A stretch of 64,000 bases of DNA from Candidatus Latescibacterota bacterium. GTDB lineage: Bacteria > Latescibacterota > CBDEFO01. Below the pieces are notes generated by a model that was given only the letters and a program-made list of their open reading frames with translations, was not told where the DNA came from and searched no databases. The stretch lies in assembly GCA_965248755.1 (NCBI GenBank), contig OZ252149.1, forward strand, positions 4,252,314 through 4,316,313, given 5' to 3'. The stretch's first letter is position 1; each line of letters begins with the position of its first letter. A program made the position numbers and the translations under genes. This document shows, in pieces, positions 14,279 to 45,168 of this stretch.

Positions 14279-16113
14279 TTAAGAACTTCCACTTTGATGA
14301 TTTCTGCAAAACTCCTGAAGTCCCTTCAAAAGTCCCTCTCTGTCTACCCTATCGACGTAGTCGATAATGTTTTGGATCTTCTTGTCCAGCCCATCGATCC
14401 GATTAGAAGACGTGATCCTTAGTATCTTATCGTGCACAGTAGGCTCTACCTTTTCGTCTCCGTTCCAAAGTTCTTCGTGCATCTTTTCTCCGAGCATAAG
14501 TCCTGTGAAGACTATCTGTATATCCTTGTCCACTTCCAGTCCGGAAAGATGTATCATGTCCTTTGCCAGATCCAATATTTTGATCGGGCGTCCCATGTTC
14601 AATATGAATATATCTCCCCTATTTCCTATCGCCGCTGCCTCCAATACCAACTGTGCCGCCTCTGGGATTGTCATAAAGTAGCGGGCTATATCAGGGTGAG
14701 ATACTGTAACGGGGCCTCCTTCTGCTATCTGTTTCCTGAATATAGGGATGACACTTCCGTCGCTGTCCAGGACGTTGCCGAATCTGACTGTGACAAACTT
14801 GGCCCTGCTTTGTCTGCCGAAATCCTGGATGAAGAACTCCGCCAGCTTCTTGGATACACCCATAACTCCCACCGGATTAACTGCCTTGTCTGTTGAGATA
14901 TTAACAAAGGTCTCCACACCGCCTTCCTCTGACAGCTGTGCCGCAGCTATAGTCCCAGCTAAATTGTTCTTTATGGCTTCCTCAGGGTTCAACTCCATCA
15001 AAAGCACGTGCTTATGAGCCGCAGCGTGAAAGACGATCTGTGGCTTGTGTTCGCCTATCATGGCCCTGAACTTTGCCCGGTCGTTAATATCTCCTATTAT
15101 CTGGACAATCTCCGTATCTCTTGCAATCTTTTCAAATTCAATTCCCAAAAAGTGCATATTGTTCTCAGCTTTGTCATAGAGCACAATTTTGAAGGGATTA
15201 TAAGCAGAAGTTGGCGGCATATCTCCGCACCGATAGAGCCCGCTGCTCCGGTTACTAATACAGTTTTATTTGCTATAAACGAGCGTAACTTCTTAGTATC
15301 TAAATTCACCTCCTCTCTACCTAAAAGGTCCTCAACCTTGACGTCCCTGAGTTGATTTATAGGAGATTTTCCATTTACCATCTCGGAGGATGCGGGTGCG
15401 ATCTTGAAATCGATGTTGCATTCTGAGCATATATCTACGATCTCCCTGATCTCTTGTCCACTCGCATCTGGAACCGCCATGATCACTTGCCTGATCTGTC
15501 TGCTTTGAATGATGTTTTTCATCTTCTCCACCCCGCCTAAAATCTCGATTCAGTGAATCCGCATGCCCACATTGGCGCCCGAATTGTCTATGAATCCCTC
15601 GATCTTATACTGCTCCCGATGGTTATTCTCCACCTCCCTGACGATCAGCTCTGCTGTGCTTCCTATGCCGTATATTAGGACAGGTGCGGCAGATCCTCGC
15701 GGTCTCAGCACAGACTCCAAACTCGACCGGAATCTGATAACAAATCTGCTACCCCCGATAAGCAGGATCATAGACATCCAGTCCAGCAAGAAGACACGCC
15801 TTGGGAAGTCCACCGTGCGCAGGACGTATACCAAAGCGATCAGAACTATACTCCCTATCGTAATACTCTTGCATATCTGAACTAAGTCCTCAACACTTGC
15901 ATATTTCCATAGTCTGCGATAGAGATTCGTAACTGAGAATATGCCTATCCTCACTGGGATCGCCAATACCACCATAAGCATCAGGTTATACCTCTGAGCT
16001 TCGGGGAATGAGAAGTTAGAGATCACCCCGAACGATAGGAAAACCGAAATTGCTATAGACAGCAAGTCTGCTACTATCAGGAGGATTTGGTGTCTTTTTA
16101 ATCTTATGTTCAC
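14279..16113 (-). pseudogene. capD: CapD/PglF/WbpM-type UDP-sugar 4,6-dehydratase, disrupted by two frameshifts
   Basis: Three consecutive ORFs (15550..16293, 15097..15531, 14279..15220) together encode an N-terminal membrane domain, a linker with VLVTGAAGSIGAEICRQLL NAD-binding motif, and the epimerase/dehydratase domain; frame changes near 15545 and 15100-15230. Confidence 0.7.
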
Positions 16114-16138
16114 CGATTCGTGTCCCAGAATTTCAGCT

Positions 16139-17263
16139 TCAGAACAAAGCTTTTTTATTCTTACGTATTGCCTCTTTGAGTCTTTTGCACACGTAGTCAA
16201 TCTGTGCCTGGGATATATTTCCGAAGAAAGGCAGCGCCAGGACATATCTTGACGCCTCCTCACAGACTGGAAAATCTCCCACTTTATATCCAAACCTCTC
16301 CCTATAGAAGGGCTGAAGGTGTATAGGAGAAAAATAGGGTCGCGATTCTACACCATCTGCTCTCAAATCCCTCATAATTCCTTCTCTATCAACATTTGTA
16401 CTTAATCTTATTACATACACAAACCAGCTTATCTTCACACCCTTTGCCACATACTGAGTTCCTACTTCCTCTACATCTTTAAGGTTCTGATTGTACTTCT
16501 GTGCCGCCTCATCCCGCTTTGACAGCAATTCATCTATCCTTTCAAGTTGAGCCAGCCCCAGCGCTGAGCTCATCTCATCCAGGCGATAGTTAAATCCGAG
16601 TCTTTCGTGCTCAAGCCAACTTCCATTCTCCGAACGCCCCTGATTTCCCAGACTCCTCAAGAGCCTGGCTAATGCCTCATCATCAGTGACGACAACGCCC
16701 CCTTCTCCCATGGTCATCTGCTTGTTGGGATAGAAAGCAAAGACACCAGCCCTCCCGAAACTCCCCACGAGCTTGTCACCATACTTTGCTCCTGTTGCCT
16801 CACAGGCGTCCTCTACCACCTCCAGACTATGTTCTTGTGACAATTCCATAATAGCATCCATATCGCACGGATGTCCGAAGATGTGAACCGGAAGTATCGC
16901 CTTTGTCCTTTCTGTGATCGCCTCCTCTATCCTGCTTGGATCCATATTCAGAGTCAGAGGATCCACATCTACGAAGACCGGCTTGCCCCTGGCCATAAGG
17001 ATGCAGTTGCTCGAAGCCACGAAGCTGAACGGAGACGTAATCAGCTCATCGCCTGGTCCTATCCCGATTCCTATCAAACAAAGATGCAGTCCACCAGTCC
17101 CACTCGAGGCTCCTACGGCGAACCTGCTCCCTATGTACTCTGCAAACTTACGCTCAAAATCCCTCAGCTTCGGACCCAGAGAAAGCCGCCCCGAGCGGAG
17201 GACTTCATTTACCGATCTGATCTCGAGTTCGCCTATATCGGGCGAGGAAAGGGGCACTTGCAT
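16139..17263 (-). CDS. DegT/DnrJ/EryC1/StrS-family PLP-dependent sugar aminotransferase
   Basis: 374 aa; family-typical layout; directly upstream of capD on the same strand. Confidence 0.85.
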   Translation of the reverse strand: MQVPLSSPDIGELEIRSVNEVLRSGRLSLGPKLRDFERKFAEYIGSRFAVGASSGTGGLHLCLIGIGIGPGDELITSPFSFVASSNCILMARGKPVFVDVDPLTLNMDPSRIEEAITERTKAILPVHIFGHPCDMDAIMELSQEHSLEVVEDACEATGAKYGDKLVGSFGRAGVFAFYPNKQMTMGEGGVVVTDDEALARLLRSLGNQGRSENGSWLEHERLGFNYRLDEMSSALGLAQLERIDELLSKRDEAAQKYNQNLKDVEEVGTQYVAKGVKISWFVYVIRLSTNVDREGIMRDLRADGVESRPYFSPIHLQPFYRERFGYKVGDFPVCEEASRYVLALPFFGNISQAQIDYVCKRLKEAIRKNKKALF

Positions 17264-17322
17264 AGCAAAATATGGGTTGGACTAAACACCTTTACGTCCA
17301 GAGCGATTCTCTGATTGCTCTA

Positions 17323-18468
17323 TCAGATCGCAGATGATTTCAACTTCCGCGCTATAACTATAAGCCCTATTGTCTCCACAAAGATAAGACCCAGACCTAA
17401 CTCTATCGGTAGTTCGACTACAAAGAGCGCGGAAAGACCGAAGAAGAATCCCATCCCAGAGCAGATAAGAACTGTGTGCTCCTGGGAAAATCCCATATCA
17501 ATCAGCTTATCGTAGAAATGGCTTCGATCTCCTGAAAATATCGGCTTTCTGTTTGCTCTCCTTTGCACAACTGCCAGAAGCGTGTCGAAAATCGGCACGG
17601 TCACTACCAGAAGTGGTCCCAGGATCCACCTTAGATCGAATCTCTGCGACGGCAGGAGAAGGATCAGCATAAAGGCGCACATAAATCCCAAAAATAGACT
17701 CCCAGAGTCACCCATAAAGACGTCGGCAGGGTGCCAGTTGAAAAATAAAAATCCCAGGCAGATTCCCAAAAGACATAGGGATATAGCTATACCTATTGGA
17801 GACTCAGCCATGTAAGAAAGTAGCGCGAAGAATCCGAAGGCAATAGCAGACACCCCCCCTGCAAGTCCATCTATCCCATCCAGGAGATTCATAGCGTTGG
17901 AACTCCCCACTACATAGAGCACTACAAGAAGAACTCCCAAAAGTCCCAAAGGGATAACTTTTGTCATTCCGATCAACACAATTACAGCCGTTATCTGTCC
18001 CAAAAGCTTAGCAAAAGGTGAAATTCTCTTCATATCGTCAATAAGTCCTACTATAAAGATAACTCCTGACGACAAAATTGCTGTGATATAAATCACCAGA
18101 AAGTCCGAATTTAAATAATTAAATCGATATGCACCATATCCGACAACCGCAAATGTCAAAAACATAGCGATCCCTCCTGTTCTGGGGATCGGATAAGAGT
18201 GAACGTCCAACCTTCCCGGAGTATATACGATGTTCAATCTCTTTGCTGTCTCCTTTGCCAAAAAAGTTAAAGCTATAGATAGAGCAAGGCAGATCCAAAA
18301 TAGAGCCGCATTGACCTTGATTCCTGTCAACTCAAAGCTGGCCCCGACAAGCAGAGCAGCCCATAGTGGGAGACGAAGAAAACGCCTGGAAGATAAATTT
18401 TCCGTCCTTTGTGTAAGACTTTTGCTCATAACTGTGGAATCCAGACAAGACTGACGAAGATACCGCAA
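17323..18468 (-). CDS. polyprenyl-phosphate sugar-1-phosphate transferase (MraY/WecA/WbpL family)
   Basis: 381 aa, about 10 TM segments; motifs DDMKRISPFAKLLGQ and HPADVFMGDSGSLFLGF. Confidence 0.8.
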   Translation of the reverse strand: MRYLRQSCLDSTVMSKSLTQRTENLSSRRFLRLPLWAALLVGASFELTGIKVNAALFWICLALSIALTFLAKETAKRLNIVYTPGRLDVHSYPIPRTGGIAMFLTFAVVGYGAYRFNYLNSDFLVIYITAILSSGVIFIVGLIDDMKRISPFAKLLGQITAVIVLIGMTKVIPLGLLGVLLVVLYVVGSSNAMNLLDGIDGLAGGVSAIAFGFFALLSYMAESPIGIAISLCLLGICLGFLFFNWHPADVFMGDSGSLFLGFMCAFMLILLLPSQRFDLRWILGPLLVVTVPIFDTLLAVVQRRANRKPIFSGDRSHFYDKLIDMGFSQEHTVLICSGMGFFFGLSALFVVELPIELGLGLIFVETIGLIVIARKLKSSAI

Positions 18469-18957: not shown

Positions 18958-18991
18958 TGACAATTTGTTGATCTGTAGCGATATTTGGGAC

Positions 18992-19776
18992 ATGAAAAAT
19001 TGCCCTCGCTGCAGGGGAAGAAAATTTTGGTTACTGAAGACTGGTCAGTTACGCTGTCGGAGGTGTAAATTGACTAGAAAGTTGACCTCCTCCTCCTGGG
19101 AGAAAACTCGAATGTCTCCGTACTGGAAGGGGAGGTTGGTTGAGTATTTTTGTCTTGGTGTTCCTGTTTACCGGTTGCGATTCCATGTTCCATACACGAG
19201 GAAGACTATGGAGCGCTGGTATCGGATCATTCGAAAGGAAATCTACCACCTCACCTTCAAGGAGCTTGAACTCCTTGAAGGTGAGGTGGAAATGGACGAA
19301 ACTCTCTTTGGTGGTAGAAGGCCTGGTAAGAGGGATTGGGGTGCTTTGGGCAAACAGATGGTCTTTGGGATCTATCAGAGAAAGGGTAAGGTGTTGACGT
19401 TTCCTATCTCGTCAAGGAGTCGTGACTCACTGTTGCCTCTTATTACCCAACACATCAAACCAGGGAGCTTATATTACACTGATGATTGGATAGCCTATGC
19501 CTCCCTTTCTATCAGTGGCAACCACGTGGTAGTGCCGAAAGAGAAGGGAATAGCTAGAGGAAGAGATCACCTTAATGGCGTGGAAGGTTTCTGGTCGTAT
19601 GCCAAACACTGGCTTTACCAGCGATCCCCGATTGATTCTATCGGGGAGGTGTTGACAAAAACTCCTTCCACCTTTACCTTAAGGAGATCGAGTGGTGCTT
19701 CAACCATCGCCACGAAAATCTCCTTCCACTTATAAGAAAGCTACTCGATCAACAAGCTGTCAAAGAGCTAAATTAG
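18992..19776 (+). pseudogene. IS1595-family transposase interrupted by a palindromic element
   Basis: N-terminal zinc ribbon CPRCRG...CRRC and DDE core with HLNGVEGFWSYAKHWLYQ; the family-typical C-terminus (KNSFHLYLKEIEWCFNHRHENLLPLIRKLL) is encoded in a different frame immediately after the palindrome at 19626-19648. Confidence 0.7.
19626..19648. repeat. palindromic element copy (TCCCCGATTGATTCTATCGGGGA) inside the IS1595 transposase gene
   Basis: Same family as 12606; sits exactly at the frame break. Confidence 0.8.
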
Positions 19777-23048: not shown

Positions 23049-23390
23049 ATGGACGTTTTGCAAACCGTAGTGTCTCAACACCTGAAAGACAATGTTCCTG
23101 ACTTTGGCCCCGGCGATACGGTCAGGGTACATGTCAGAGTCATAGAAGGTGAAAAGGAGAGGACACAGATCTTTGAAGGGACAGTACTGCAAAGGAGAGG
23201 TGGGGGTATATCAGAGACATTCACAGTCCGAAAGGTATCCGCAGGTTACGGCACCGAAAGGATCTTCCCGCTCCACTCTCCTGGAGTAGCCAAGATCGAA
23301 CGCATCCGAAGAGGGAAAAGCAGACGAGCGAAACTCTTTTACCTCAGAAAGCTCAAAGGCAAAGCCGCCAGAGTTGCAGCAAGAAGGTAG
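23049..23390 (+). CDS. rplS: 50S ribosomal protein L19
   Basis: 113 aa; typical L19 sequence; last gene of the operon. Confidence 0.9.
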
Positions 23391-23433
23391 GTGGCGCACC
23401 TCTGCTAAGCGATGTTTCTTGCTCTTTTCCATT

Positions 23434-23470
23434 GCCCCATCACAGCTGTCCGATGGGGCGTTTTATTTAT
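23434..23470 (+). terminator. Rho-independent terminator of the ffh-rplS operon
   Basis: Stem GCCCCATC / GATGGGGC with 10-nt loop followed by GTTTTATTTAT. Confidence 0.6.
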
Positions 23471-23499
23471 CCGTCAAAGTGGTGCGACCGCTCCGTGAT

Positions 23500-25143
23500 A
23501 TGAAGAAGATCACACCTTTCCATATATTAGCGATCGTTCTTACAGTATTCTTCTGCGCCGTAAGATACATTAGATGGCAGGAGCCTATGGGACTTGACCA
23601 GGGTCTCTTTGCCTACTTCGGAAGACACATCCTCACCGGCAGTGTCCCCTACTTAGACATCTGGGACAGCAAACCTCCCGCTATATTCTATATATACTCC
23701 ATCAGCTTTGCTCTACTGGGGGACTCCTTTTTCAGCGTCTTTCTTAGCGAAACCCTATTCTTGGCTCTCACGGCCCTCTTGATCTATCTTCTGTGCGCAG
23801 AAGTTTTCGATAAGACAGTCGCCCTATTTGCCGCGGCCATCTACGTTCTCTTTTCCAACGCTTCTATATTCGACGGATTCTGGTCCACAGCACAGGCTGA
23901 GGTCTTCATGAACTTGCCCATAGTCGCAAGCTTCTACATCCTCACCAAGAACTTAAGGAGATGGCACTTTTTCGCCTCTGGGGTTCTTCTCGGACTGTCA
24001 GCGATGTTCAAACTTACCGCCCTATTCCTGCTACCCTCTTTTATCCTGTATCTCTACCTATCCTGCAAAGAGAGATCCCCGATTGAAGCTACCGGGGATG
24101 GGATTCACAGGTACACATATTTCGGCATCGGACTTATCATCCCCCTGTCAATCTGCGCCTTCTACTTCTGGATGCAGGGAGCCCTGGACGATATGATTTA
24201 CACACTTGTCTCTTACAGCTACCGGTACTCGCAAGCCATAAACCAGGGACATCCTTTTCTCAAGACTTCCCTTGGACAGGTCATAAGGTTTGTCTATTTC
24301 AACCCCACAGTATCCATTTTATCCCTCGTCGGACTTATATATCTCCTTGTAAAAAGACGTTCTAAAGAAACGTATCTTTTAATATCCTATCTTGTGCTAT
24401 CCTTTATTTCGGTCTGTGCGCAAAGACAGTTTGCAGGGTACCACTTCATCGTGCTCTCTCCTCCGCTTGCCGTTATCTGCGGCAGTGCATGCCCCGTTAT
24501 ATTCAACTGGATAGTCCAAGTCGTGCGACCACTCCGTAGTGCAAGGACGATCCTCCGCAAAAGATCCTCAAAGCCTCTGCTCAGGTCATCGGCAGCTATT
24601 ATGACAGTTGTATTATTAGCCTCCCTTCTTTACGCGGACATTTCCCGTTATTATCGGTACTACAAACCCGACATCGCCTATGCTCTTGGAAAGATCCCCG
24701 AAAGACAATATCTAAAGACCTTTGACAGGGGGGCAATATCCTTTCTGAATAACAACTCTGTAGCTGACTATATAAAAAATAGGACCGATAGTGACGACTA
24801 TGTCTTGGTATGGGGATTAGCTCCTGCTATATATTATCTGTCAGACAGAAAATCTCCCACAAAATACGTCTTCCACCACGTTCTGTTGACCGACGCTCCG
24901 CTGTCCCTCACTCTTGGCGGACTTGAAGAAAGGAGGAGGGAATTCATAGATAAAGTAAGTGAAAGCAAGCCCCGTTACATCGTCATAGGCATCAACGACA
25001 GGAACGGCTTTGAGCCGCAGGACTCCTACACTCAGCTTCTCAATTTCAAAGAGCTCAAGGACTATGTCTTTACAAACTACGATAGAGAGAAAAGAATCGG
25101 GAATTTCATCCTTATGAGGAGAAAAGACCAGAAAGTACTTTAA
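23500..25143 (+). CDS. polytopic membrane glycosyltransferase-like protein (GT39/GT83, ArnT/PMT-like)
   Basis: Start moved to the ATG after the terminator; multiple TM helices; family assignment tentative; contains an in-frame palindromic element at 24076-24098. Confidence 0.5.
   Translation: MKKITPFHILAIVLTVFFCAVRYIRWQEPMGLDQGLFAYFGRHILTGSVPYLDIWDSKPPAIFYIYSISFALLGDSFFSVFLSETLFLALTALLIYLLCAEVFDKTVALFAAAIYVLFSNASIFDGFWSTAQAEVFMNLPIVASFYILTKNLRRWHFFASGVLLGLSAMFKLTALFLLPSFILYLYLSCKERSPIEATGDGIHRYTYFGIGLIIPLSICAFYFWMQGALDDMIYTLVSYSYRYSQAINQGHPFLKTSLGQVIRFVYFNPTVSILSLVGLIYLLVKRRSKETYLLISYLVLSFISVCAQRQFAGYHFIVLSPPLAVICGSACPVIFNWIVQVVRPLRSARTILRKRSSKPLLRSSAAIMTVVLLASLLYADISRYYRYYKPDIAYALGKIPERQYLKTFDRGAISFLNNNSVADYIKNRTDSDDYVLVWGLAPAIYYLSDRKSPTKYVFHHVLLTDAPLSLTLGGLEERRREFIDKVSESKPRYIVIGINDRNGFEPQDSYTQLLNFKELKDYVFTNYDREKRIGNFILMRRKDQKVL
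24076..24098. repeat. palindromic element copy (TCCCCGATTGAAGCTACCGGGGA) inside a coding sequence
   Basis: 19 of 21 identity to the family consensus; 6-bp stem; read-through in frame as RSPIEATGDG. Confidence 0.6.
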
Positions 25144-26064: not shown

Positions 26065-27564
26065 ATGAACTACACAAAGAACATCGGTCTTGAGATACAT
26101 TGTCAACTCGACACGGAAAGCAAGCTGTTCTGCGAGTGTAGTGCCAGATATTTCCAGAAATACCAAAGGACAGGGACTTCCAAGATAAAACCAAATATGG
26201 AGATATGTCCTATCTGTCTCGGGTTTCCGGGGATACTCCCTGTTCCTAACTTTGAGGCGATAAGGCTCTGCGTTAAATTGTCTTTAGCCCTCAACTGCGT
26301 AATCTCAGAAGAAGTGATCTTCCACCGCAAGAGCTATACGTATCCAGATCTTCCAAAAAACTATCAGATCTCGCAGTTCAAAAACGCAATAGGCAGTAAC
26401 GGATACATGGACCTGGACCTGAATGGAGAGAATAAGAAAGTAACAATAACCGAAGTCCATCTGGAAGAGGATCCCGGAAAGCTCGAACATGAAAAAAGCG
26501 ACACGGGGATAGACTTCAACAGATGCGGCATACCGCTTGCGGAAATCGTCACTGACTACAGAGATATAACCACGTTCAGGGAGGCCCAGGCGTTTGTTCT
26601 AAAGCTCAGAGATATAGTCAGAGACACAGAAGTATCCAACGGAGATATGGAGAAAGGATCCTTACGGGTGGACATAAATATCTCCGTCCTCCCCCAAGAC
26701 GAAGGAAATTACGGCACCAAGACCGAGATCAAAAACCTGAACTCTATAAGAGCCGCAGGAGACGCTATTGACGCCGAATCTGAAAGACAGAGAAATCTCC
26801 TTGAATCAGGGGATAGAGTCAGACCGGTCACTTTAAGATGGGATGGTCACGGATTAAGCCTCCTCAGAGTTAAAGAAGAGGTCTCAGACTACAGATATTT
26901 TCCTGATCCTGACTTAGCCCCTATCAAATTAGACCTGGAACTTATAGAAGAGATAAAAAGCCAACTGCCGGAGGAAAGGGACGAGCTTTTCAGGCGACTT
27001 GTGGAAGAATATGCCTTGACGGAAGATCAGGCGGAAATCCTGATCTTCGAGAGGAGGCTTGCACGCTTCTTTGAACTTGGGGTCGCTGGGACAAAAGATG
27101 CGGAGCTTACTTATAACTTCCTTACATCCACGCTTCTTCCGAACCTTCAGAAGCGCAATTTGGAGCTTAAAGACGTTTCTTCTGAAAAGATAGCTCAATT
27201 CTTAAGGTACGTCAAAGATCACAACACTGATAAGACCCTTGTCCACCAGGCACTCAATCAGTCTATAGACCAAAAGACAGATCTTGTCGAGACTATAAAA
27301 GTAAAAGGCCTATCCTCCAAAAGAATAGGAACAGATGAGACCGAACGCATAGTGGATAAGACCATACAGAGTCTCAAGAAGGATGCCTCCGACGACAAGG
27401 GAAACGTAGTTGACAATGCCGTTGCGGAGTTTAAGGATATAGGGGAGTCCAAAGCCGTAAACGTTATAATAGGCGCCATAATGAGAGAATACGGCAGGAA
27501 GGTCGATCCCAAAGACGTAGGGAAATTGGTCAACCGGAAGATACAAGAGATGGTCGAAGCATAA
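26065..27564 (+). CDS. gatB: aspartyl/glutamyl-tRNA(Asn/Gln) amidotransferase subunit B
   Basis: 499 aa; N-terminal GLEIHCQLDT..., CPICLGFPGILPV and FHRKSYTYPDLPKNYQISQ motifs. Confidence 0.85.
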   Translation: MNYTKNIGLEIHCQLDTESKLFCECSARYFQKYQRTGTSKIKPNMEICPICLGFPGILPVPNFEAIRLCVKLSLALNCVISEEVIFHRKSYTYPDLPKNYQISQFKNAIGSNGYMDLDLNGENKKVTITEVHLEEDPGKLEHEKSDTGIDFNRCGIPLAEIVTDYRDITTFREAQAFVLKLRDIVRDTEVSNGDMEKGSLRVDINISVLPQDEGNYGTKTEIKNLNSIRAAGDAIDAESERQRNLLESGDRVRPVTLRWDGHGLSLLRVKEEVSDYRYFPDPDLAPIKLDLELIEEIKSQLPEERDELFRRLVEEYALTEDQAEILIFERRLARFFELGVAGTKDAELTYNFLTSTLLPNLQKRNLELKDVSSEKIAQFLRYVKDHNTDKTLVHQALNQSIDQKTDLVETIKVKGLSSKRIGTDETERIVDKTIQSLKKDASDDKGNVVDNAVAEFKDIGESKAVNVIIGAIMREYGRKVDPKDVGKLVNRKIQEMVEA

Positions 27565-27570
27565 GGATTA

Positions 27571-28530
27571 TTATGTTCGCTGGTCAGCCGTGTAGACATC
27601 TACTGTCTCCACAGGGCGGAATTTTCTCTTAAACTGTCTTAAGCCAGCACTTCCCAAATCGCTCGCATCGTTTACAAGCTCGAACTTTCTCATTTCACTA
27701 AAGAAACAATATCTCGTATATTCTGATAGTCCTTTTATGTCCAGATCACCTTTGGAGACGAAGAAATTAGCCATCTCCTCCCACATCCTTCCCCCCATCC
27801 AGAATCCCCTTATCTTCCCATCTATCTCGGCAACCCACCCGGAAAGATCTGGAACTTTTGCATAATACTCTAAAGCGGATCTCGTATAAGCCCAGTCCAA
27901 GAGCCTCAGTGAACGTCCCTCTCTCCCATGTCTTTTAGCCTTTCTCCATGCACGCATAATTTCCATGCACCCGTCCACATCTTCTTTCCCCATCTTTCTA
28001 CATAGGACTTTATAATCCTTTTCAGTCCGACGTATTCTCTTCCTCAGGTCACTGTAAGCGCTCCCTTCCATCTGCACAATCTTCTTTGGGTCATATATAT
28101 ACTCCGCCTCCTTCCACCTGAGATAGCAGACGCCCATCTTATCCATCGCCACTTTGTCACACCTGTCCACCCACAAGATTCTCCCCTCTTTATCTTCGTT
28201 AAAAGAGTTCATCAACTCTGTGCACTGCACAAGAGCACTATCTGAAAAGGGCAGGGGAGGGAAAAACATATTCATCCTGACGCCCTCAGGTCTGTGATTT
28301 ACCACAAAGACACAGAGACACCCACTTATCTTCATCCAGAATATGTCTCTTGAGGGGGAGGCCCCGTAGCAGAAGATAAACGGAAAGTAGTAACACCAGG
28401 TCTTCTTTCGATTCTCGCTAAATGTCTCTCTGAACAGATCCGCATCCTCAAGCGTCAGGCGCTTTAAGTGTGTCTCAAAGAGGGCTATTTTACTATCTGC
28501 AGTAAGAAGGGCACTATCCGCGCTCTGCAT
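27571..28530 (-). CDS. DUF2156-like (MprF C-terminal domain-like) acyltransferase-fold protein
   Basis: 319 aa; C-terminal GLRQFKRKFRP motif and overall layout recall the aminoacyl-phosphatidylglycerol synthase C-terminal domain; overlaps speH by 17 nt. Confidence 0.45.
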   Translation of the reverse strand: MQSADSALLTADSKIALFETHLKRLTLEDADLFRETFSENRKKTWCYYFPFIFCYGASPSRDIFWMKISGCLCVFVVNHRPEGVRMNMFFPPLPFSDSALVQCTELMNSFNEDKEGRILWVDRCDKVAMDKMGVCYLRWKEAEYIYDPKKIVQMEGSAYSDLRKRIRRTEKDYKVLCRKMGKEDVDGCMEIMRAWRKAKRHGREGRSLRLLDWAYTRSALEYYAKVPDLSGWVAEIDGKIRGFWMGGRMWEEMANFFVSKGDLDIKGLSEYTRYCFFSEMRKFELVNDASDLGSAGLRQFKRKFRPVETVDVYTADQRT

Positions 28531-28903
28531 CGAACAACCTCGTCCTTGAAGGCTTCAGCACCTTCTTCAGATGATCTACAATTACCGAACTGTCCATCCC
28601 ACCTGGTGGCTTGCTGCCGCCCCTGAAAGAATCATTCGGGGACTGTTCGTCCCTCCCGTCACAGGTCAGAATATCCACAGCCATAAATCCCTCCTCAGCC
28701 CAGGTGTGGACGCTCACGTGCGACTCGGAGATCATGACAAATCCGCTGAATCCGTAAGGCTCGAACTGATGAAAGTGATGGTGCACGATCCTGGCACCTG
28801 AAAGCTTCACAGCCTCTATCAATACGCTCTTGACAGGCTCTACCTGCTTCAAGAGGTCTATGTTATCAAACCACATATCCAAAAGGATGTGGCTCCTTGT
28901 CAT
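28514..28903 (-). CDS. speH: S-adenosylmethionine decarboxylase proenzyme (small bacterial/archaeal type)
   Basis: 129 aa; processing-site motif in FVMISESHVSVHTWAEEG. Confidence 0.8.
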   Translation of the reverse strand: MTRSHILLDMWFDNIDLLKQVEPVKSVLIEAVKLSGARIVHHHFHQFEPYGFSGFVMISESHVSVHTWAEEGFMAVDILTCDGRDEQSPNDSFRGGSKPPGGMDSSVIVDHLKKVLKPSRTRLFDAERG

Positions 28904-29943
28904 CTTTTCCTTTTCTCCCTCTTTTTCACCTGTAATGTGTACAGTTGTCCTTCATAGACGCTCCTTACAGAAGAGCGAGCTGAAGGCGTAGTCAGGGCGT
29001 GGATCAACTGACTCGATCCCGCCAGAATCTGAGACCCTTCATATCTATTGAACCCGGGAATAATCTCTCTTATAAGTAGACCCATAGAAATAGCGCTCTT
29101 GTGTATCCTTATCATCTCGTTCCACCCTTTATGAGCAAATGAAATGAACATCTGCTGTCCTTGATCATCTTTTAGTCCCTCAAGTCCTCGCGATACGAAA
29201 AGCTCAAACCCTTCCAGGGTATAAGGGGGATCTGTCGCAAGGACATTGAAACTGTTTTGGAATCTTTTGGGAAGAGGCGTCCTCAAGTCGTGCTGCACAG
29301 CCTCGATCATCAGATCCTCTTTTTTTGAAGTGTGCGATATATAATCTACTATCCTTCCATCTACTTCCAGGACGCATATACTCCCCTTCATATTCTCACT
29401 TTTGCAATATAGCTCCCTTTTCAAGAGTCCCAGAGCCAAAGACGCCAGATCGTCATCTCCCAGGATCAGAACATCCCTGCCCTCTACAGCATCGTTTTCA
29501 TACATATACAGAGCCCTGTTCAAGGCCGTCTGTGGAGTATCGTGTGACTGATCCAGGGACCTGTCCACAGATGGCCTTTCCCTGCAATAGTGAGTCAGGG
29601 TTTCCAACAGCGGCTCTAATTCAGAAGACGCCAGGATTCCTCTCGCTTGGCAATGTGGGCAGTTAAAACGCTCTCTGCTCCATATCCCCATATCCTCCTT
29701 CAAAATATCATTTCCCACCTCCGAAAGACATAATCCGCTTTTTCTAACTAATATGCCCCTCTTTTCTAATTCTCTCCTCACAGCCGACACCACGGGCAAA
29801 GGGAGGTGGACCGACTGAGAGAGTTCCCAAAGACTTACGTTTCCCCTCCTGTAGACCTCCCTTAGAATGCGCCTTATAGCCTCAGGCCCTTCGTATATTT
29901 GTGTTGCTGCTGAAACCTCCGAAAGGAGATCGTCGCCTGTCAC
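28900..29943 (-). CDS. DUF43-family aminopropyltransferase-like protein (branched-chain polyamine synthase BpsA-like)
   Basis: 347 aa; ILGDDDLASLALG and ATDPPYT motifs; 4-nt overlap with speH. Confidence 0.55.
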   Translation of the reverse strand: MTGDDLLSEVSAATQIYEGPEAIRRILREVYRRGNVSLWELSQSVHLPLPVVSAVRRELEKRGILVRKSGLCLSEVGNDILKEDMGIWSRERFNCPHCQARGILASSELEPLLETLTHYCRERPSVDRSLDQSHDTPQTALNRALYMYENDAVEGRDVLILGDDDLASLALGLLKRELYCKSENMKGSICVLEVDGRIVDYISHTSKKEDLMIEAVQHDLRTPLPKRFQNSFNVLATDPPYTLEGFELFVSRGLEGLKDDQGQQMFISFAHKGWNEMIRIHKSAISMGLLIREIIPGFNRYEGSQILAGSSQLIHALTTPSARSSVRSVYEGQLYTLQVKKREKRKR

Positions 29944-30056
29944 TATTTTCTCACTTTCTTGCTTACGGCTATCCTTAATCTACGACTTTCAAATAAGCCT
30001 ATTTTATCAAAGTCAGCTTCCTCGTCTGCACAAATTCATCCGCCTCTAACTGTAAA

Positions 30057-32622
30057 CTATCCTGTCGTGCCGAAGTTATCCAGAAAGATCACAAAGTCAG
30101 ATAGACCTACTTCTCCATCGCTGTCCAAGTCATACGCAGAATCCCAATCGACTGAACTGGTAGTTGTTCCGAACACATCTAGAAAACGGACAAAATCGGA
30201 GAGACCTACTTCATTATCCCCGTCGAAATCTCCTACAAGGTCAGGGACGACAGTAAAGTCAGAGATATTCAACAACACTGACACACTGTCGCTCCATCTA
30301 TTAGTCACAACAAGGTCATTATTTCCATCTCCATCCAAATCCGCACTAAAAACTGACACGGGACCATTCCCAACACTATAGGCCGCATTAATTTCAAATG
30401 TCCCATTTCCATCATTCAACAACACTGACACATTATCACTGTTCTCATTAGCTACAGCCAAGTCATTATCCCCATCCCCGTCTAAATCCACACTGAAAAT
30501 TGATATAGGACTGTCCCCAACAGCATAGTTCATCTTAGGAGCAAATGTTCCATTTCCATTATTCAACAACACTGATACACTATCGCTGCCAATATTAGCT
30601 GTTGCTAAGTCATTATCTCCATCTCCATCTAAATCTGTACTGAATACTGATGCGGGTTCATTTCCAGCGTCATAGTCTGCCCTAAATGGAAATGCTCCAT
30701 CTCCACTATTCAACAACACCGATACATTTTCGCTAATAAGATTAGCCACAACTAATTCATTATCCCCATCCCCATCTAAATCCACACTGAAAATTGATAT
30801 AGGACCCTCCCCAACAGCATAGTCCACCTTAGGTGCAAATGTGCCATTCCCATTATTCAACAACACTGATACATTATCGCTGTTCCAATTAGCCACAGCC
30901 AAGTCATCATCCCCATCTCCATCTAAATCTGTAATGAATACTGACTCGGGACTACCCCCAACTGCATAGTCAGTCCTGGGTCCGAAAAGGACATCGACAA
31001 AAGCAAATCCGTCAGAGAGTGTGTCTGTCAGACCATTGGGATTTGTAACTATTACGTCTACAGTGCTAATAGGATGAGCGGGAATCACAGCGGTGATCGT
31101 ACTGGAGGATACTATGACTACGTCTGTGGCTGCTCTATCTCCGAAAGTAACAGTTGCTCCACTTTGGAAATCGCGGCCTTTTATCGTCACAGATGTACCA
31201 CCCAATTTCGTGCCGAAAATAGGATCAATAGATGTCACAATAGGGGGAACCCCAATAAAAGCAAATCCATTAGACAGTGTGCCAGCCTGACCGTCGGGAT
31301 TTGTGACTGTCACATCCACAATGCCAACGGGATGAGCGGGAGTTGTTGCGGTAATGGTACCCCAAAGTCCTACAGCTACATTTGTGGCATCGCTCTCGCC
31401 GAAAATAACAGTCGCTCCACTTTGGAAATTGCTCCCTGTTATCGTCACAGACGTACCCTCTAATTCCAGGCCAGAAGTGGGATTGATAGAGGTTACAGCC
31501 AGAGAAGGTATCACATCGGAGAGATTCAACAACACTGATACATTATCGCTACCCAAATTAGCCACAGCCAAGTCGTTATCACCATCTCCATCTAAATCCA
31601 CACTGAATACTGATTCGGGACGACTCCCAGCGGCATAGTCTACCTTAGGTGCAAATGGTCCCATTCCCATTATTCAATAACACTGATACATTATCGCTGA
31701 GGAAATTAGCCACAGCTAAGTCGTTATCTTCATCACCATCTAAATCTGCAATGAATACTGAATAGGCATGATCCCCAGCGGGATAGTCCACCTTAGTTAC
31801 AAATGTCCCATTCCCATTATTCAATAACACTGATACAGTACCGTCGAATACAGAATTAGCCACAGCCAAGTCATTATCCCCATCTCCATCTAAATCTGCA
31901 ATGAATACTGAAGAGGGACCAAGCCCGGCGTTATAGTCTGTCTTAGGTGCAAATGTCCCATCTCCTTTGTTCAACAACACTGATACATTATAGCTGTTCC
32001 TGTTAGCCACAGCCATGTCATTATCCCCGTCTCCATCTAAATCTGCGATGAAAACTGAAACGGGATTATCCCCAACAATCAAGTCTACCTTAGGTACAAA
32101 TGTTCCGTTCCCATTGTTCAATAATACTGAAACGCTATCGCTCCCTGCATTAGCCACAGCGAGGTCATTATCTCCATCCCCATCTAAATCTGCAATGAAT
32201 ACTGAACGGGGGAAAACCCCAGTGCCATAATCCACCTTATGCCCAAATGTTCCATCCCCATTATTTAACAACACTGATACAGTACCTGGGGGGATGTTAT
32301 TAGCCACAGCTAAGTCATTATCCCCATCTCCATCTAAATCCGCACTGAATACTGAACGGGGATATTCCGTAACACCATAGTCCACCTTAGGTGCAAATGT
32401 ACCATCGCCATTATTCAACAACACTGATACAGTACCTGGGGAGATGCTATTAGCCACAGCTAAGTCATTATCCCCATCTCCATCTAAATCCGCACTGAAT
32501 ACTGAACGGGGTTTATCCCCAGTGGCATAGGAAGTCGGAGGCCCCAAAAGGGCTTGTGCATAGACAGGCGCATACAAAGCGACTAACAGGATCAAAGCAG
32601 TATATAAGATTGCACACCTCAT
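30057..32622 (-). CDS. secreted FG-GAP/VCBS + IPT/TIG + dockerin-like surface protein, second paralogue, with apparent 1-nt frameshift near 31650
   Basis: ORFs 31645..32622 (signal peptide MRCAILYTALILLVALYAPVYAQA plus FG-GAP repeats) and 30057..31670 (FG-GAP, three IPT/TIG, dockerin-like tail) overlap; the frame break lies inside a conserved NNGNGTFAPK repeat. Confidence 0.7.
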
Positions 32623-32653: not shown

Positions 32654-33976
32654 TTAAGCGACTCGCTTTAAGACTCGTTCGAAAGCGCTGATAGCCTCGT
32701 CTATATTTTCTCTACCGGTCGGGATGGAGATACTGTGCATTGTCAGACCGGGATTTGTGTGAACGCCCTCCTCAAGGAGTCCGAGATATAGCCTGTATGA
32801 CAGCGCTCTATCACTCGCAGCGCCGGCGCGATAGTTGAGGATCTCCTGATTAGTGAAATAGATGCCGAATAGCGGCCCGATACCGATCACACAAGTTGCA
32901 ATGCCGACCCGGTCTGCGGCTTCTTTTAATCCTCTTCGGATTCGGTCGCCCAGTGTTTTAAGGTGAACGTACATCTCATCTGTCAGGAGCCGCAGAGTGG
33001 CAAGGCCCGCGGTGGTCGACATGGGGTTGCCCGCAAATGTGCCGCTTTGAAAGAAACCCTTACCGGTCCTTGCGTCCAGAACGTCCATAAGTTCAGCTCG
33101 TCCGCCGAGCGCGCCGCCGGGGAATCCGCCCGCGATAATCTTTCCAAAGAGTGTAAGGTCAGGTTCAAAACCGTAGAGTTCCTGGACACCTCCGGGGGCA
33201 ACAGAGAAGCTGACGACTTCGTCAAGGATAAGGTAGAGGTCGTACTTGTGAGTGATGTTCCGAACAAAGCGCGAAAATTCAGGACCTACTGACATAACGC
33301 CTGCCCGGACATCAAAAAGTACGCCCGCCAATTCATCCCGGTGTTCCGCCAATATGCGATCTACAGATTCAGGGTCATTCAGCGGCAGGACAACAGTATC
33401 CTCAGCCACGTGGCACGACACTCCTTTGACTGTCACGACAGGTTCAGGTGAATCGGCCGGACCTGCCATATCGGTCGGCGGAGCTACGCTGACCTCAACA
33501 GCGTCGTGGCTGCCATGAAAGGCCCCCTCAAATTTCGCGATTTTCTCCTTTCCGGTCAGGCCGCGCACCAACCTTACTGCGTTGAGGCTTGCTTCTGTGC
33601 CTGAGTTAGTAAACCGGACCCGCTCGACGGATGGGACCCGCCGACATATCTCCTCGGCAAGTTCAGCCTCTACACCGACTTGGCGGCCAAGGGCAAAGCC
33701 CCTGCCAATCTGGCTTTGCACAGCTTCAACGACATTCGGATGGCGATAGCCCGCTATAGCCGCCGTATGGTGATTAGCTACATCCAAGTAACGATGGCCG
33801 TCAACGTCATAAAGGTAACATCCCTCGCCACGCTCCATATAGAGCGGAAAGGGGAAGGTATCATAAGCCCCTTTGGCGACGCCTCCCGGCATAGAGGACA
33901 GACCTTTTTCGTAAAGGGCCAAAGACCTGGGGTTGTTCTTGAGATATCGAGATTCCAGGGTTTCGATAGATTCCAC
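32654..33976 (-). CDS. class-III PLP aminotransferase, glutamate-1-semialdehyde 2,1-aminomutase-like
   Basis: 440 aa; ILDEVVSFSVAPGG...FGKIIAGGFPGGALGGR pattern resembles HemL. Confidence 0.65.
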   Translation of the reverse strand: MESIETLESRYLKNNPRSLALYEKGLSSMPGGVAKGAYDTFPFPLYMERGEGCYLYDVDGHRYLDVANHHTAAIAGYRHPNVVEAVQSQIGRGFALGRQVGVEAELAEEICRRVPSVERVRFTNSGTEASLNAVRLVRGLTGKEKIAKFEGAFHGSHDAVEVSVAPPTDMAGPADSPEPVVTVKGVSCHVAEDTVVLPLNDPESVDRILAEHRDELAGVLFDVRAGVMSVGPEFSRFVRNITHKYDLYLILDEVVSFSVAPGGVQELYGFEPDLTLFGKIIAGGFPGGALGGRAELMDVLDARTGKGFFQSGTFAGNPMSTTAGLATLRLLTDEMYVHLKTLGDRIRRGLKEAADRVGIATCVIGIGPLFGIYFTNQEILNYRAGAASDRALSYRLYLGLLEEGVHTNPGLTMHSISIPTGRENIDEAISAFERVLKRVA

Positions 33977-35558: not shown

Positions 35559-36407
35559 ATGGGCATTACGGTATCCTATAAATCTCTGAAAGAATCGCCC
35601 GTCCCTGATGCATTTTGGGCTCAGATCGGGCTGGCAGGTCCTGACGGGTCGGTGGATCGAGCTAAGATCAAGAAGTACCAAGAGGTTGTGGGATTCAGCC
35701 GATATATTGTGGAAGCTGTCGAGACGTTGCCCGAAGATCAGGAGATCACCATTTTAGACTGCGGCTGTGGGAAGTCGTATCTGTCGTTTGTGGTAAACGA
35801 TCTGTTGACGCGCCAGATGGGTAGGTCTGCCTACTTCATCGGCGTGGACACCAACGACGCGGTCATCCAGATGTGCGAACAGACTCGGGAGGGGCTTGGG
35901 TTCGATAATATGGTCTTTCACGTCGCCCGGACGCTCGATTTTGAGCCGGACAGAAGTGTGGATGTTGTGATCGCTCTCCACGCCTGCAACACGGCCACAG
36001 ACGAGGCCATCGCAAGGGGGATATCCCTGGGGGCCAGGTACATAATGACAATGCCGTGCTGCCAGAATCAAGTCCGGGGACAACTCAAGGATAAGCATCC
36101 GCTGGCTGACCTGACCCAGTTCGGCCTTCTGAAGTACGCCTTTGCCAGCACGCTCACCGATGGCCTTAGGTCTTTGATCCTCAAGGGAGTCGGATATGAG
36201 GTCAAGCACTTTGAAGTGGTTCCTCCCAAGTGCACACCCAAGAATGTTCTGATCCAAGCCCGAAAGATTAAGCGCAAGCGGGAGCCGAATCTGTCTGAGT
36301 ACGTGCGGGTAAGTCGTCAGTTCGGTGTGCGGATTGCCCTGGAGCATATGCTGCCTGAGGAATTGCGGGAAGTGCTGGCAAGGGCAGATATAGGATACAA
36401 TGTGTAG
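35559..36407 (+). CDS. SAM-dependent methyltransferase
   Basis: ILDCGCGKSYLSFVV (motif I-like) and DVVIALHACNTATDEAI. Confidence 0.65.
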   Translation: MGITVSYKSLKESPVPDAFWAQIGLAGPDGSVDRAKIKKYQEVVGFSRYIVEAVETLPEDQEITILDCGCGKSYLSFVVNDLLTRQMGRSAYFIGVDTNDAVIQMCEQTREGLGFDNMVFHVARTLDFEPDRSVDVVIALHACNTATDEAIARGISLGARYIMTMPCCQNQVRGQLKDKHPLADLTQFGLLKYAFASTLTDGLRSLILKGVGYEVKHFEVVPPKCTPKNVLIQARKIKRKREPNLSEYVRVSRQFGVRIALEHMLPEELREVLARADIGYNV

Positions 36408-39984: not shown

Positions 39985-40577
39985 GCTCTAAAAGACAGAG
40001 TCGTATAGAAAGAGGGACTGCAGAGACACAGATAGAACTCGTGCTCGACCTTGACGGAAGAGGGAAAGCCGACATCGATACGGGAATCGGCTTTTTTGAC
40101 CACATGCTCGAGCTTTTTGCAAAGCATGGGTTCTTCGACCTTACTGTCAAATGTAAGGGCGACCTTAGTGTAGATCCGCATCATACGGTCGAAGACACAG
40201 GGATATGTCTGGGGTCCGCTATCGTTCAGGCTTCAGGGGACAAATCTGGCATCGTAAGATACGGATGCAGCTACGTGCCTATGGACGAAGCCCTTGCAAG
40301 GGTCGTTGTAGATCTTTCAGGACGCTCATCTTTCATCTTTAACGCTGAGATAAGGGACCGAAAGATAGGCCAGTTCCCGATGGAACTCTTGCCGGACTTC
40401 TTCAAAGCCGCAGCCGACAACGCTAAGATGAACCTGCATATAGACCTTATTAGGGGAGAAAATAGCCATCACTCGTCAGAGGCCATCTTTAAAGCCTTCG
40501 CCAGGGCCCTTGACCAGGCCTCGTCAATAAGCCAAAGAGTTCAGGGCGTCCTGTCTACCAAGGGGACTCTGCAGTGA
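39981..40577 (+). CDS. hisB: imidazoleglycerol-phosphate dehydratase
   Basis: 198 aa; [16 protein letters not shown] and [11 protein letters not shown] motifs; 4-nt overlap with hisC. Confidence 0.9.
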
Positions 40578-41665
40578 GTACAGAGGTAAAATACGACTGC
40601 AGATACTTCAAAGGCGACGTCCCCTGCAAATTCAATAAATTAGACGGCTCCGTCTGCGAGTGCTGTGGGCACTACGATAAGGTGGAGGGGAAGATACTCA
40701 TTATAAAGCTCGGCAGGGCCGGAGACGTTATAAGGACCACCCCTCTTTTGAGAAGACTCAAATATGTCTATCCAAAATCCCACATAACGTGGCTCACATG
40801 CTTTCCAGAATTCGTTCCGGATATAGTGGACTGCGTATTTACGTTCGATCCTCAAAACATCCTGTATCTCCAGCAGGTGCACTTTGATATCCTTTACAAC
40901 CTGGACAAGGATGTGGAAGGCTGCACCCTTGCTAACATAGTTTCCGCGGCCACAAAAAAAGGCTTCCACCTCAAAGACGGAAAATGCCATCCTATAGACA
41001 AAGACGCAGAGCACAAGTTCCTCACAGGCATATTCGATCAGGTGAGCAAAGCCAACACCAAAAGCTATCCTCATGAAATTTTCGAGATATGCGGCTTTGA
41101 ATTTAAAGGGGAGGAGTATATCCTCGAGAACTTCGCATCAGAGGGCTATAACTGGAGGATAGAGGAGCCGAAGCCCCTTGTAGGATTAAACACCGGCTGC
41201 GGTGGCACGTGGAGATCCAGACTCTGGGGCCAGGAAAAGTGGGTAGAGCTGGCACAGAGCCTCAAATCACAAGGCATAGGCGTCGTGCTACTGGGCGGAG
41301 AGGGGGAACACGAAAGGAATACATATATCTCAAAAGAAAGCAAAGCAAGCTATCTGGGATACTTCCCTATCAGGAAATTCGTCAACCTGATAGATCAATG
41401 TAACACCGTAGTGACAGCCGTCACCATGGCTACCCACATAGCTATAGGGCGTAGAAAAGGCATAGTCCTCTTAAACAACACGTTCAACCCCAGCGAATTT
41501 GAACTCTACGAATTGGGACAGATTGTAGAGCCTGACTTTGACTGTGACTGCTACTATTCTCCGATATGTCCCAACGACTGCATGCAGTACATCAGTCCCC
41601 AGAAGGTCTTTAACACATGTCTTGCAGTCCTCGAAAGCCAGGGGGAAAATCTTAATCTCTTATGA
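40574..41665 (+). CDS. glycosyltransferase family 9 (heptosyltransferase-like) with N-terminal Cys-rich segment
   Basis: [19 protein letters not shown] and GLNTGCGG...VVLLGGEGE pattern of GT9; N-terminal C-x7-C...C-x-CC. Confidence 0.7.
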
Positions 41666-42822: not shown

Positions 42823-42828
42823 GAAAGT

Positions 42829-43782: not shown

Positions 43783-43800
43783 GCGGCCGAATATAAATAG

Positions 43801-45141: not shown

Positions 45142-45168
45142 GGATTTATCCTGACGGGGAAGTTCCGA

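Follow-up and report, generated by a model that had tools for sequence, protein, structure and literature searches.

BpsA-type aminopropyltransferases are currently viewed as a speciality of thermophiles, and DUF2156 proteins as aminoacylases of lipids. In the branched-chain polyamine synthase of Thermococcus kodakarensis (Tk-BpsA), a GDDD motif (Tk G157-D160) places the aminopropyl group of decarboxylated S-adenosylmethionine (dcSAM), D225, E259, Y290 and Y316 are the acceptor-activating residues, and in canonical BpsA a flexible acidic cluster at the C-terminus (Tk E339 and D342-E345; the DEE motif of Thermus thermophilus, Tt) serves as the aminopropyl carrier and governs product specificity (PMC12979288). 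In the DUF2156 enzymes ErgS and ErdS a basic alpha(+) helix is class-defining and essential for the use of aminoacyl-tRNA (PMC8913301, PMC13219428), and the pocket of ErdS for the CCA end includes W785, R789-G791, H795, F913, R914 and K916 of the second GNAT domain (PMC13219428). The subject of this report is a group of three genes in which both families meet, on the minus strand at positions 27571-29943 of a 64,000-nucleotide stretch of DNA (the window) from a Candidatus Latescibacterota bacterium (contig OZ252149.1, positions 4,252,314 to 4,316,313). The module that these genes are proposed to encode would join the two families in mesophilic, abundant and uncultured bacteria.

Three minus-strand open reading frames (ORFs) fill the interval exactly and overlap one another, as a preliminary description of the locus had stated; the overlaps are 4 and 17 bp. 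A BpsA-family (DUF43) aminopropyltransferase-like gene (28900-29943, GTG start, 347 aa, PF01861) is followed by a class-1b pyruvoyl decarboxylase proenzyme gene homologous to SpeH/SpeD (28514-28903, 129 aa, PF02675/TIGR03330) and by a free-standing DUF2156 double-GNAT transferase gene (27571-28530, 319 aa, PF09924); searches with hidden Markov models bore out all three family assignments made in that description. The BpsA-like stop codon and the SpeH start codon share 4 bp (ATGA), the DUF2156 start runs 17 bp into the SpeH gene, and purine-rich, Shine-Dalgarno-like stretches lie 5' of both internal starts. Public annotation contains the identical three products within the same boundaries, all unnamed.

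The triad may represent a single module, a proposition that we hold to be evenly balanced, in which dcSAM-dependent aminopropylation and acylation from an aminoacyl-tRNA donor are directed at the same amine-rich small molecule. In the first step, the BpsA-family enzyme would put an aminopropyl group from dcSAM onto an amine acceptor, with the co-translated decarboxylase as the most likely source of dcSAM. The DUF2156 enzyme would then act on the same molecule, most likely by moving an amino acid from aminoacyl-tRNA to an amine, with the basic helix between its two lobes holding the tRNA acceptor arm as in the DUF2156 family, and the product would be an N-aminoacyl, aminopropylated conjugate of the polyamine type. 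The parts of this scheme differ in strength. Since BpsA-like and DUF2156 proteins are strictly paired and in some lineages fused, it is near certain that both transferases act on one molecule. That the first step is a dcSAM-dependent aminopropyl transfer is likely, given the invariant GDDD, D225 and Y290 positions and the linkage to methylthioadenosine (MTA) phosphorylase and SpeH. The use of aminoacyl-tRNA in the second step is, on balance, favoured by the PF09924 assignment, the structural matches to aminoacyl-tRNA-dependent enzymes, the basic helix and the lack of a coenzyme A (CoA) motif. The identity of both donors (dcSAM and aminoacyl-tRNA), the soluble polyamine acceptor and the order of the two steps are what we infer from this evidence.

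The DUF2156 subfamily comprises 27 clusters by word-indexed search and 121 representatives (E<1e-30) by exhaustive profile search. A scan of genomes yielded 58 loci, distributed among Latescibacterota (26), Gemmatimonadota (5), SAR202/Dehalococcoidia/Chloroflexota (22) and unclassified bacteria (5), and their neighbouring genes were identified from gene calls and targeted phmmer searches. In all 55 loci that include upstream DNA (one of them, L058, looks truncated), the gene directly 5' of the DUF2156 gene on its strand is BpsA-like, and the two genes overlap by 4-11 bp in the gene-called examples. Identities across the pair loci are 31-47%, rising to 94% in the close relative L007, a Candidatus Latescibacterota metagenome-assembled genome (MAG) that is the closest genome match to the window locus. 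The complete triad, in which SpeH stands between the other two genes, recurs five times, L007, L006, L073 and L075 being among the loci, at identities down to 38%; SpeH is linked in only three of the 55 genome loci, plus three metagenome loci. Since SpeH is missing from the remaining loci, only the BpsA-like and DUF2156 genes make up the conserved core, and SpeH is an accessory in some lineages. Neither result that the preliminary description named as refuting it was obtained, since the third protein matches DUF2156 and the triad is conserved elsewhere; its view of the triad as a unit stands as regards the operon-like layout and the tie between the DUF2156 and BpsA-like genes, with the correction that SpeH lies outside the conserved core. 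Beside remoter DUF2156 relatives, at about 30% identity, no BpsA gene is present.

Moreover, the two proteins can be fused. With the window BpsA-like protein alone as the query, fusions were found in two representative clusters among 1.84 billion proteins. In loci L055 and L057 the BpsA_C domain, a Zn ribbon and the LPG_synthase_C domain lie in one protein of 702 and 762 aa, respectively. These fused genes lie in a compact gene cluster of deep-branching uncultured bacteria (L055:3754-7322; L057:3710-7399) with the order MTA phosphorylase, fusion, SpeH homologue. The L055 fusion is preceded by an MTA phosphorylase gene (TIGR01694, 297 bits against a cut-off of 274.85), the gene upstream of the L057 fusion resembles it, and an AdoMet_dc (SpeH) homologue follows the fused gene in both.

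The BpsA-like protein of the window matches PF01861 (BpsA_C) at 1.2e-45 (156 bits, cut-off 27). A winged-helix domain at the N-terminus, with a weak Pfam match and a CPHC motif at aa 95-98, precedes a Rossmann catalytic domain, and full-length phmmer matches were obtained to the Pyrococcus furiosus protein 2qm3 (4.7e-34) and to Tk-BpsA (5xnc, 7.1e-31, residues 9-302). The GDDD and DPPY motifs reported in the preliminary description are located at aa 162-165 (window 29449-29460) and aa 238-241 (window 29221-29232), and an FNRY motif lies at aa 298-301. In an alignment of 183 sequences (61 of the pair type, 59 of them unfused, 120 further homologues and two solved sequences), GDDD is invariant in all 61 pair-type sequences and in nearly all of the 183, and the Asp of DPP (Tk D225) and Tk Y290 are invariant throughout; Tk Y316 falls beyond the aligned part of the solved chains. 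A neighbour-joining tree of the BpsA homologues gave no clean pair-specific clade, and pair-type proteins were distinguished from the others by C-terminal architecture, an (L/I)YTAD tail versus a CxxC...CxxC Zn ribbon. The ribbon forms the C-terminus of most other bacterial homologues and is kept as the linker in the fused proteins. The window protein is best placed in the BpsA family (PF01861) as a probable dcSAM aminopropyltransferase, and is not filed here as a branched-chain polyamine synthase.

The SpeH homologue matches PF02675 (AdoMet_dc) at 5.5e-27 (94.7 bits) and passes TIGR03330 (95.9 bits, cut-off 75.65), and its nearest solved relative is the S-adenosylmethionine decarboxylase (AdoMetDC) of Thermotoga maritima (1tlu, 1.9e-18). 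A self-cleavage site is present at E60-S61-H62 (window 28718-28726), and S61, together with H66 and C81, occupies the positions of the pyruvoyl self-processing triad of 1tlu (S63, H68 and C83). In L070 and L075 the Glu of the cleavage site is replaced by Gln (QSH). A low-complexity insert of about 20 residues, RDEQSPNDSFRGGSKPPGGMDSS, follows the catalytic Cys and precedes the C-terminal strand (aa ~85-105, window 28589-28651) and is confined to the window and the 94%-identical L007.

The third protein matches PF09924 (LPG_synthase_C) at 4.2e-19 (69.2 bits, cut-off 27.5), a domain present in all 27 homologues examined, and has a weak match to PF13480. Its AlphaFold2 (AF2) model (pLDDT 92, pTM 0.89) contains two alpha/beta GNAT lobes, at aa ~22-146 and ~176-317, joined by a helix at aa 157-173 whose basic stretch, YSDLRKRIRRTEKDY, spans aa 159-173 (window 28012-28056). 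The basic helix is found in 23 of 23 family members, with 6-10 Lys/Arg residues (mean 7.7) and a mean net charge of +5.3 over 21 residues. Lobe II carries the stretches W195-RKAKRHGR (window 27922-27951), NDASDLG (27652-27672) and GLRQFKRKFRP (27613-27645); W195 is invariant and followed by R/K..QGR, and K301, R305 and P306 are invariant within FKRKFRP. At the level of motifs, with no structural superposition, W195 and FK(R)KFRP resemble W785 and F913/R914/K916 of ErdS. In a Foldseek search of the PDB the top match was the uncharacterised, free-standing Bacteroides thetaiotaomicron protein 2hqy (4.9e-18), followed by the MprF synthase domains (3e-12 to 1e-10), the peptide synthases Sba18/Sbb17 (~1e-10; their structures contain streptothrisamine, a small amine) and FemX (2e-10). 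All of the best characterised structural matches (MprF, Sba18/Sbb17 and FemX) are aminoacyl-tRNA-dependent enzymes, and CoA-dependent tandem GNATs rank lower, with E-values of 1e-8 to 1e-6 and smaller TM-scores. Sequence and profile searches of the PDB (phmmer and profile) reached only 2hqy and no MprF chain, and no conserved Q/RxxGxG/A CoA-binding motif was found across the family members. The DUF2156 protein has no transmembrane helix (maximum Kyte-Doolittle hydropathy over 19 residues, 1.13), and hydropathy gave no transmembrane-like segment in any of the three triad proteins. Elsewhere, some proteins of the subfamily contain two or three copies in tandem, and others join it to RimK/YheCD ATP-grasp, MurF-like Mur ligase, CapA (PGA_cap), SET and APH kinase domains (P0268-P0270, P0274, P0288, P0299, P0311, P0316, P0331 and P0345); these tandem and multidomain architectures had no mention in the literature searched.

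In sister operons, which hold the nearest BpsA-like relatives beyond the pair family, other acyl-transfer enzymes stand in the place of DUF2156. In L065:2793-4982 a BpsA::GNAT fusion is followed by SpeH; L066:5001-7945 carries BpsA, GNAT, FkbH (a glyceryl loader of acyl carrier protein, ACP; 202 bits against 146.65) and ACP genes; L069:136-2995 carries SpeH, an FkbH-like gene and a fusion of peptidyl carrier protein (PCP) to BpsA; and L070:5001-7889, from another Latescibacteria genome, carries BpsA, SpeH and an Eis-like NAT_N/GNAT_C gene. SpeH homologues thus stand beside BpsA-like genes in five architectures (window, L065, L069, L070 and L055). An IS256-family transposase gene is also present near the L070 triad. 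From gene content, an aminopropyltransferase, often with its own decarboxylase, appears to have been coupled repeatedly to an acyl-delivering enzyme drawing on CoA, a carrier protein or, most likely in the window, tRNA, and these operons apparently form an unstudied family of mesophilic pathways that pair an aminopropyltransferase with an acyl donor. They are the main reason why N-acylation of an aminopropylated amine is favoured over a lipid substrate. Acylation or aminoacylation of the product by the third gene, as suggested earlier, agrees with the GNAT, Eis-like and FkbH/ACP genes found in the same position.

Several observations weigh against the scheme of aminopropylation and tRNA-dependent aminoacylation of one polyamine-type molecule. 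The pair-type BpsA of L072 has no DUF2156 neighbour, and 2hqy, the closest solved relative of the DUF2156 protein, is itself uncharacterised. The column of Tk E259 holds S, R, I, T, H and other residues in the pair family, with no clear equivalent; alignment of this loop is uncertain, and an acidic residue occurs 2-3 positions downstream. Moreover, the acidic C-terminal cluster of canonical BpsA is missing. In its place the window protein has an (L/I)YTAD motif and ends in the basic residues KKREKRKR (window 28903-28926), within the C-terminus LYTLQVKKREKRKR, with a net charge of +6 across the last 15 residues; the consensus of the pair family is (L/I)YTAD followed by basic residues, with a mean net charge of +1.8. 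Because the acidic cluster and a clear E259 are both lacking, neither the canonical ping-pong mechanism of BpsA nor a polyamine acceptor should be assumed. The preliminary description had, in addition, predicted long or branched polyamines typical of thermophiles. That prediction is not supported, given the altered C-terminus and the carriers, all MAGs of marine, lake or soil origin (TARA, ALOHA and deep Lake Baikal; SAR202, Latescibacterota and Gemmatimonadota).

The decarboxylase raises a further difficulty. The equivalent of T. maritima P71 is Ala in the window, where HTWAE stands in place of HTWPE (SpeH aa 66-70, window 28694-28708), and the position is Ala or Val in eight (window, L006, L007, L065, L069, L070, L073 and L075) of the ten BpsA-linked homologues, which come from five operon architectures. 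The two homologues beside fused genes (L055 and L057) keep the proline and have Asn at the H68 position (NTWPE). Li et al. 2023 report a central proline that all true AdoMetDCs keep and that is lost in the SpeD-derived arginine decarboxylases, which otherwise barely diverge, and they flag as anomalous a SpeD homologue in a genome without a SpeE homologue (PMC10407285). The SpeH homologue could accordingly be a SpeD-type decarboxylase of arginine, or of another amino acid, that makes the acceptor (agmatine, for example), with dcSAM supplied by a gene elsewhere; no speE was found in the window. This alternative is possible, although clearly the less probable course, and it would alter the substrate logic while leaving the pairing of the two transferases intact. 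Two prolines are candidates for the reported one, and the second, the P51 equivalent, is kept (FEPYG); TIGR03330 is passed; and a BpsA-family enzyme would replace SpeE as the consumer of dcSAM, so that a lone SpeD is not anomalous here. All ten homologues also keep an acidic residue after the P71 position, which is Asp in L065 and Glu in the other nine and corresponds to E72 of T. maritima, which we take to be the counterpart of the ribose-binding E247 of human AdoMetDC. Together with the dcSAM-consuming neighbour gene and the linkage of the fused system to MTA phosphorylase, this residue favours S-adenosylmethionine as the substrate, and the homologue is reasonably probable as an AdoMetDC. 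The family assignment of the preliminary description stands, and its choice of substrate is made less certain by the HTWAE deviation. The BpsA-linked decarboxylases may constitute a specialised clade of SpeD homologues.

A gene for a multi-pass membrane protein of about 390 aa, overlapping the BpsA-like start in 37 Latescibacterota and Gemmatimonadota loci (e.g. L001:3818-4984), is a further point against the scheme; the fusions of the DUF2156 subfamily and this co-operonic protein would equally fit membrane-bound, cell-wall or polymer substrates. The protein has an acidic disordered tail, and a homologue (P0253) is encoded elsewhere on the contig taken as the source of the window. No Pfam or NCBIfam match was obtained, and its AF2 model (pLDDT 73) gave no significant PDB match by Foldseek, the best being the choline-transporter-like PNS1/CTL1 at an E-value of 0.43. 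On a lipid route, the DUF2156 protein would aminoacylate a membrane lipid, in the manner of MprF, alanyl-diacylglycerol (AlaDAG) synthase or ErgS, the BpsA-like protein would aminopropylate the new amino group or a lipid amine to give a more cationic head group, and the membrane protein would flip or export the product. To our knowledge, all functionally characterised PF09924 proteins act on lipids, which counts in favour of such a route. ErgS is likewise free-standing and soluble (PMC8913301), the polybasic tail of the BpsA-like protein could bind an acidic membrane, and branched-chain polyamine (BCPA) is partly membrane-associated in T. kodakarensis (PMC12979288). However, neither enzyme has a conserved membrane domain or amphipathic anchor, the membrane protein occurs in none of the SAR202 loci and neither with the fused forms nor in the window, its fold matches no lipid flippase, and the soluble GNAT, Eis-like and ACP partners of the sister operons are typical of small-molecule amines. 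A lipid acceptor for the window DUF2156 protein is thus doubtful in view of the missing membrane segment and the small-molecule enzyme partners, and the lipid route as a whole is unlikely.

A donor other than tRNA has a similarly low probability. Here the DUF2156-like protein would be a tandem GNAT that uses acyl-CoA or ACP to N-acylate, for instance acetylate, the polyamine. Sister BpsA-like proteins are indeed fused or adjacent to CoA-type GNATs and Eis-like NAT_N/GNAT_C proteins, acetylated BCPA occurs in T. kodakarensis (PMC12979288), and the fold also matches CoA-dependent tandem GNATs at lower scores, in addition to the weak PF13480 match. The conserved inter-lobe helix and a PF09924 score above threshold argue instead for aminoacyl-tRNA, as do the dependence of all better structural matches on this donor and the lack of a conserved CoA pyrophosphate-binding motif.

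More improbable still is a substrate in the envelope or among poly-amino acids, for which the DUF2156 protein would act on a side-chain amine in the manner of FemX and the BpsA-like protein would aminopropylate the same peptide. The tandem copies of the DUF2156 subfamily and its fusions to ATP-grasp, Mur-ligase, CapA and SET domains are consistent with this, as is the setting of the window triad amid surface-polysaccharide and FG-GAP surface-protein genes. Moreover, most Latescibacterota and Gemmatimonadota loci (22-27) have murA...cca on one side of the module and (APS kinase) murD on the other (e.g. L002:89-1381 and 7699-9081), with an alkaline-phosphatase-like gene next. However, murA (470 bits against 392.7) and murD (393 bits against 211.95) score as housekeeping equivalogs, murD here being outside the dcw cluster, and murA, murD, cca and APS kinase were rejected as members of the module and attributed to probable synteny within one subclade, since neither the window nor SAR202 nor the fused forms have them. 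In addition, no Mur-ligase or ATP-grasp gene stands alongside the window triad, and the multidomain DUF2156 relatives lack a BpsA domain, save for the two fusion clusters. Finally, that an ordinary polyamine operon merely happens to adjoin an MprF-like gene unrelated to it, a reading for which there is nothing more than the independent existence of each family, is ruled out for practical purposes by the strict pairing in 55 of 55 loci over three phyla, the overlapping stop and start codons and the two fusion lineages.

A 113-bp spacer (29944-30056, minus strand) separates the BpsA-like start from an FG-GAP/TIG repeat gene (30057-31670) and is the sole candidate site for a promoter of the triad's own; read-through from upstream is the alternative. 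A scan for the sigma-70 consensus gave zero matches within the spacer, and promoter and terminator scans of the window returned counts at or near shuffled expectation. Among the remaining ORFs of at least 200 aa in the window, no other polyamine-biosynthesis family, speE included, was found. The first two genes upstream of the triad on its strand encode FG-GAP/TIG repeat proteins; the FG-GAP/VCBS and IPT/TIG repeat proteins of the window have 537, 325 and 1226 aa (30057-32622 and 4954-8634), and identical promoter-like strings recur inside the repeats. Further upstream on the triad's strand is a class-III aminotransferase gene (32654-33976) resembling glutamate-1-semialdehyde aminomutase or GntE, which at 342 bits is under the HemL equivalog and subfamily cut-offs (527 and 398). 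A Methyltransf_32-family gene (35559-36407) is situated within about 6 kb of the triad and likewise near the independent triad of L006 (L006:6510-7574), just downstream of which are two APH-family kinase genes, an Eis-like Acetyltransf_9 gene and a GNAT gene. On the other side, gatB (26065-27564), encoding Asp/Glu-tRNA amidotransferase subunit B (467 bits, cut-off 338), converges on the DUF2156 gene, and the two stop codons are 6 bp apart; gatB in the window and cca in other loci were considered as tRNA-related neighbours and are treated as coincidence. Surface-polysaccharide gene sets lie on both sides of the triad region (11390-18468 and 40574-53225), one with Wzi-like, Polysacc_synt_2, DegT aminotransferase and GT4 genes and the opposite one with GT9/GT1/GT2, Wzx-like flippase, UDP-GlcNAc 2-epimerase and YfhO-like genes, and a PMT_2/ArnT-like glycosyltransferase gene is present at 23374-25143. 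Mobile-element genes at 18965-19735, 58073-58873 and 62317-63564 comprise an IS1595-type transposase, a full-length IS256-family (Transposase_mut) transposase and a truncated IS256 copy.

No paper combining DUF2156 with polyamines was found in the literature searched, which likewise held nothing relevant on DUF43/BpsA homologues, tRNA-dependent aminoacylation of polyamines or DUF2156 fusions; this agrees with the preliminary description, which knew of no account of the coupling. A 2026 review of branched-chain polyamines does not mention DUF2156- or GNAT-coupled BpsA homologues (PMC12979288). The parts all belong to known families, and it is their combination and the predicted product that would be new. 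It is suggested, with slightly less than even confidence, that the pair and its fused form constitute an undescribed class of tRNA-dependent metabolite synthesis, in which aminoacyl groups are placed onto aminopropylated polyamines or are themselves aminopropylated, with aminoacyl-polyamine conjugates as the products. The module may also be one branch of a wider set of mesophilic pathways that combine BpsA-like enzymes with acyl donors (CoA, ACP or tRNA) in abundant uncultured marine and soil lineages, a conjecture that falls a little short of an even chance. If these proposals are true, polyamines would be added to the few acceptors other than proteins that receive amino acids from tRNA, modified polyamines of a new kind would come to light, and a function would be provided for many proteins annotated, probably misleadingly, as 'bis-aminopropyl spermidine synthase family' and 'phosphatidylglycerol lysyltransferase domain-containing'. 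Three small soluble proteins, or a single fused one, would suffice for a direct test of the prediction.

In comparison with known systems, the closest counterpart of the first protein is BpsA, the N4-bis(aminopropyl)spermidine synthase (EC 2.5.1.128) of T. kodakarensis and T. thermophilus (5xnc and 6j27; P. furiosus 2qm3), whose products are N4-aminopropylspermidine and N4-bis(aminopropyl)spermidine. Homology is full-length across the N-terminal and Rossmann domains (E 1e-28 to 5e-34), at about 30-35% identity as read by eye from the alignment, and the GDDD, D225 and Y290 positions are shared, as is a dcSAM-type donor logic through linkage to SpeH and, in the fused form, MTA phosphorylase. The window family differs in its DUF2156 partner or fusion, its mesophilic or cold-water uncultured hosts and its lack of the acidic cluster. 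N-acylation of a polyamine after its synthesis is known from SpeG, SSAT, Eis-like enzymes and the acetyl-BCPA of T. kodakarensis, and the sister operons carry GNAT or Eis-like genes in the third position; those enzymes are, however, not obligately paired with a synthase, and the window enzyme is of the tRNA-dependent DUF2156 type. With the C-terminal domain of MprF/aaPGS (4v34-36, 5vrv and 6lv0) the third protein shares PF09924, the double-GNAT fold, the basic inter-lobe helix and a GLRxFKxKFxP-type motif. Unlike MprF, it has no flippase or membrane domain, the TM-score is only 0.6, and its genomic partner is an aminopropyltransferase and not a lipid-handling protein. ErgS, the fungal ergosteryl-glycine synthase, and 2hqy are likewise soluble, stand-alone DUF2156 proteins of about 300 aa, the latter being the best match in sequence (2.4e-08; profile 5.6e-20) and in structure (TM 0.78-0.83); the acceptor of ErgS differs in being a sterol hydroxyl, and no linkage of either protein to polyamine genes was found in the literature searched. 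VlmA and PacB are aminoacyl-tRNA-dependent transferases of secondary metabolism that likewise act on an amine or hydroxylamine. Together with Sbb17/Sba18 (9wqw-9wqy) they belong to Fem-like sequence families, act on streptothrisamine, isobutylhydroxylamine and uridyl peptides and have no aminopropyltransferase partner. Nevertheless, these enzymes, of which Sbb17/Sba18 match the window protein at about 1e-10, provide a precedent for a tandem GNAT that moves an amino acid from aminoacyl-tRNA to a small cationic metabolite.

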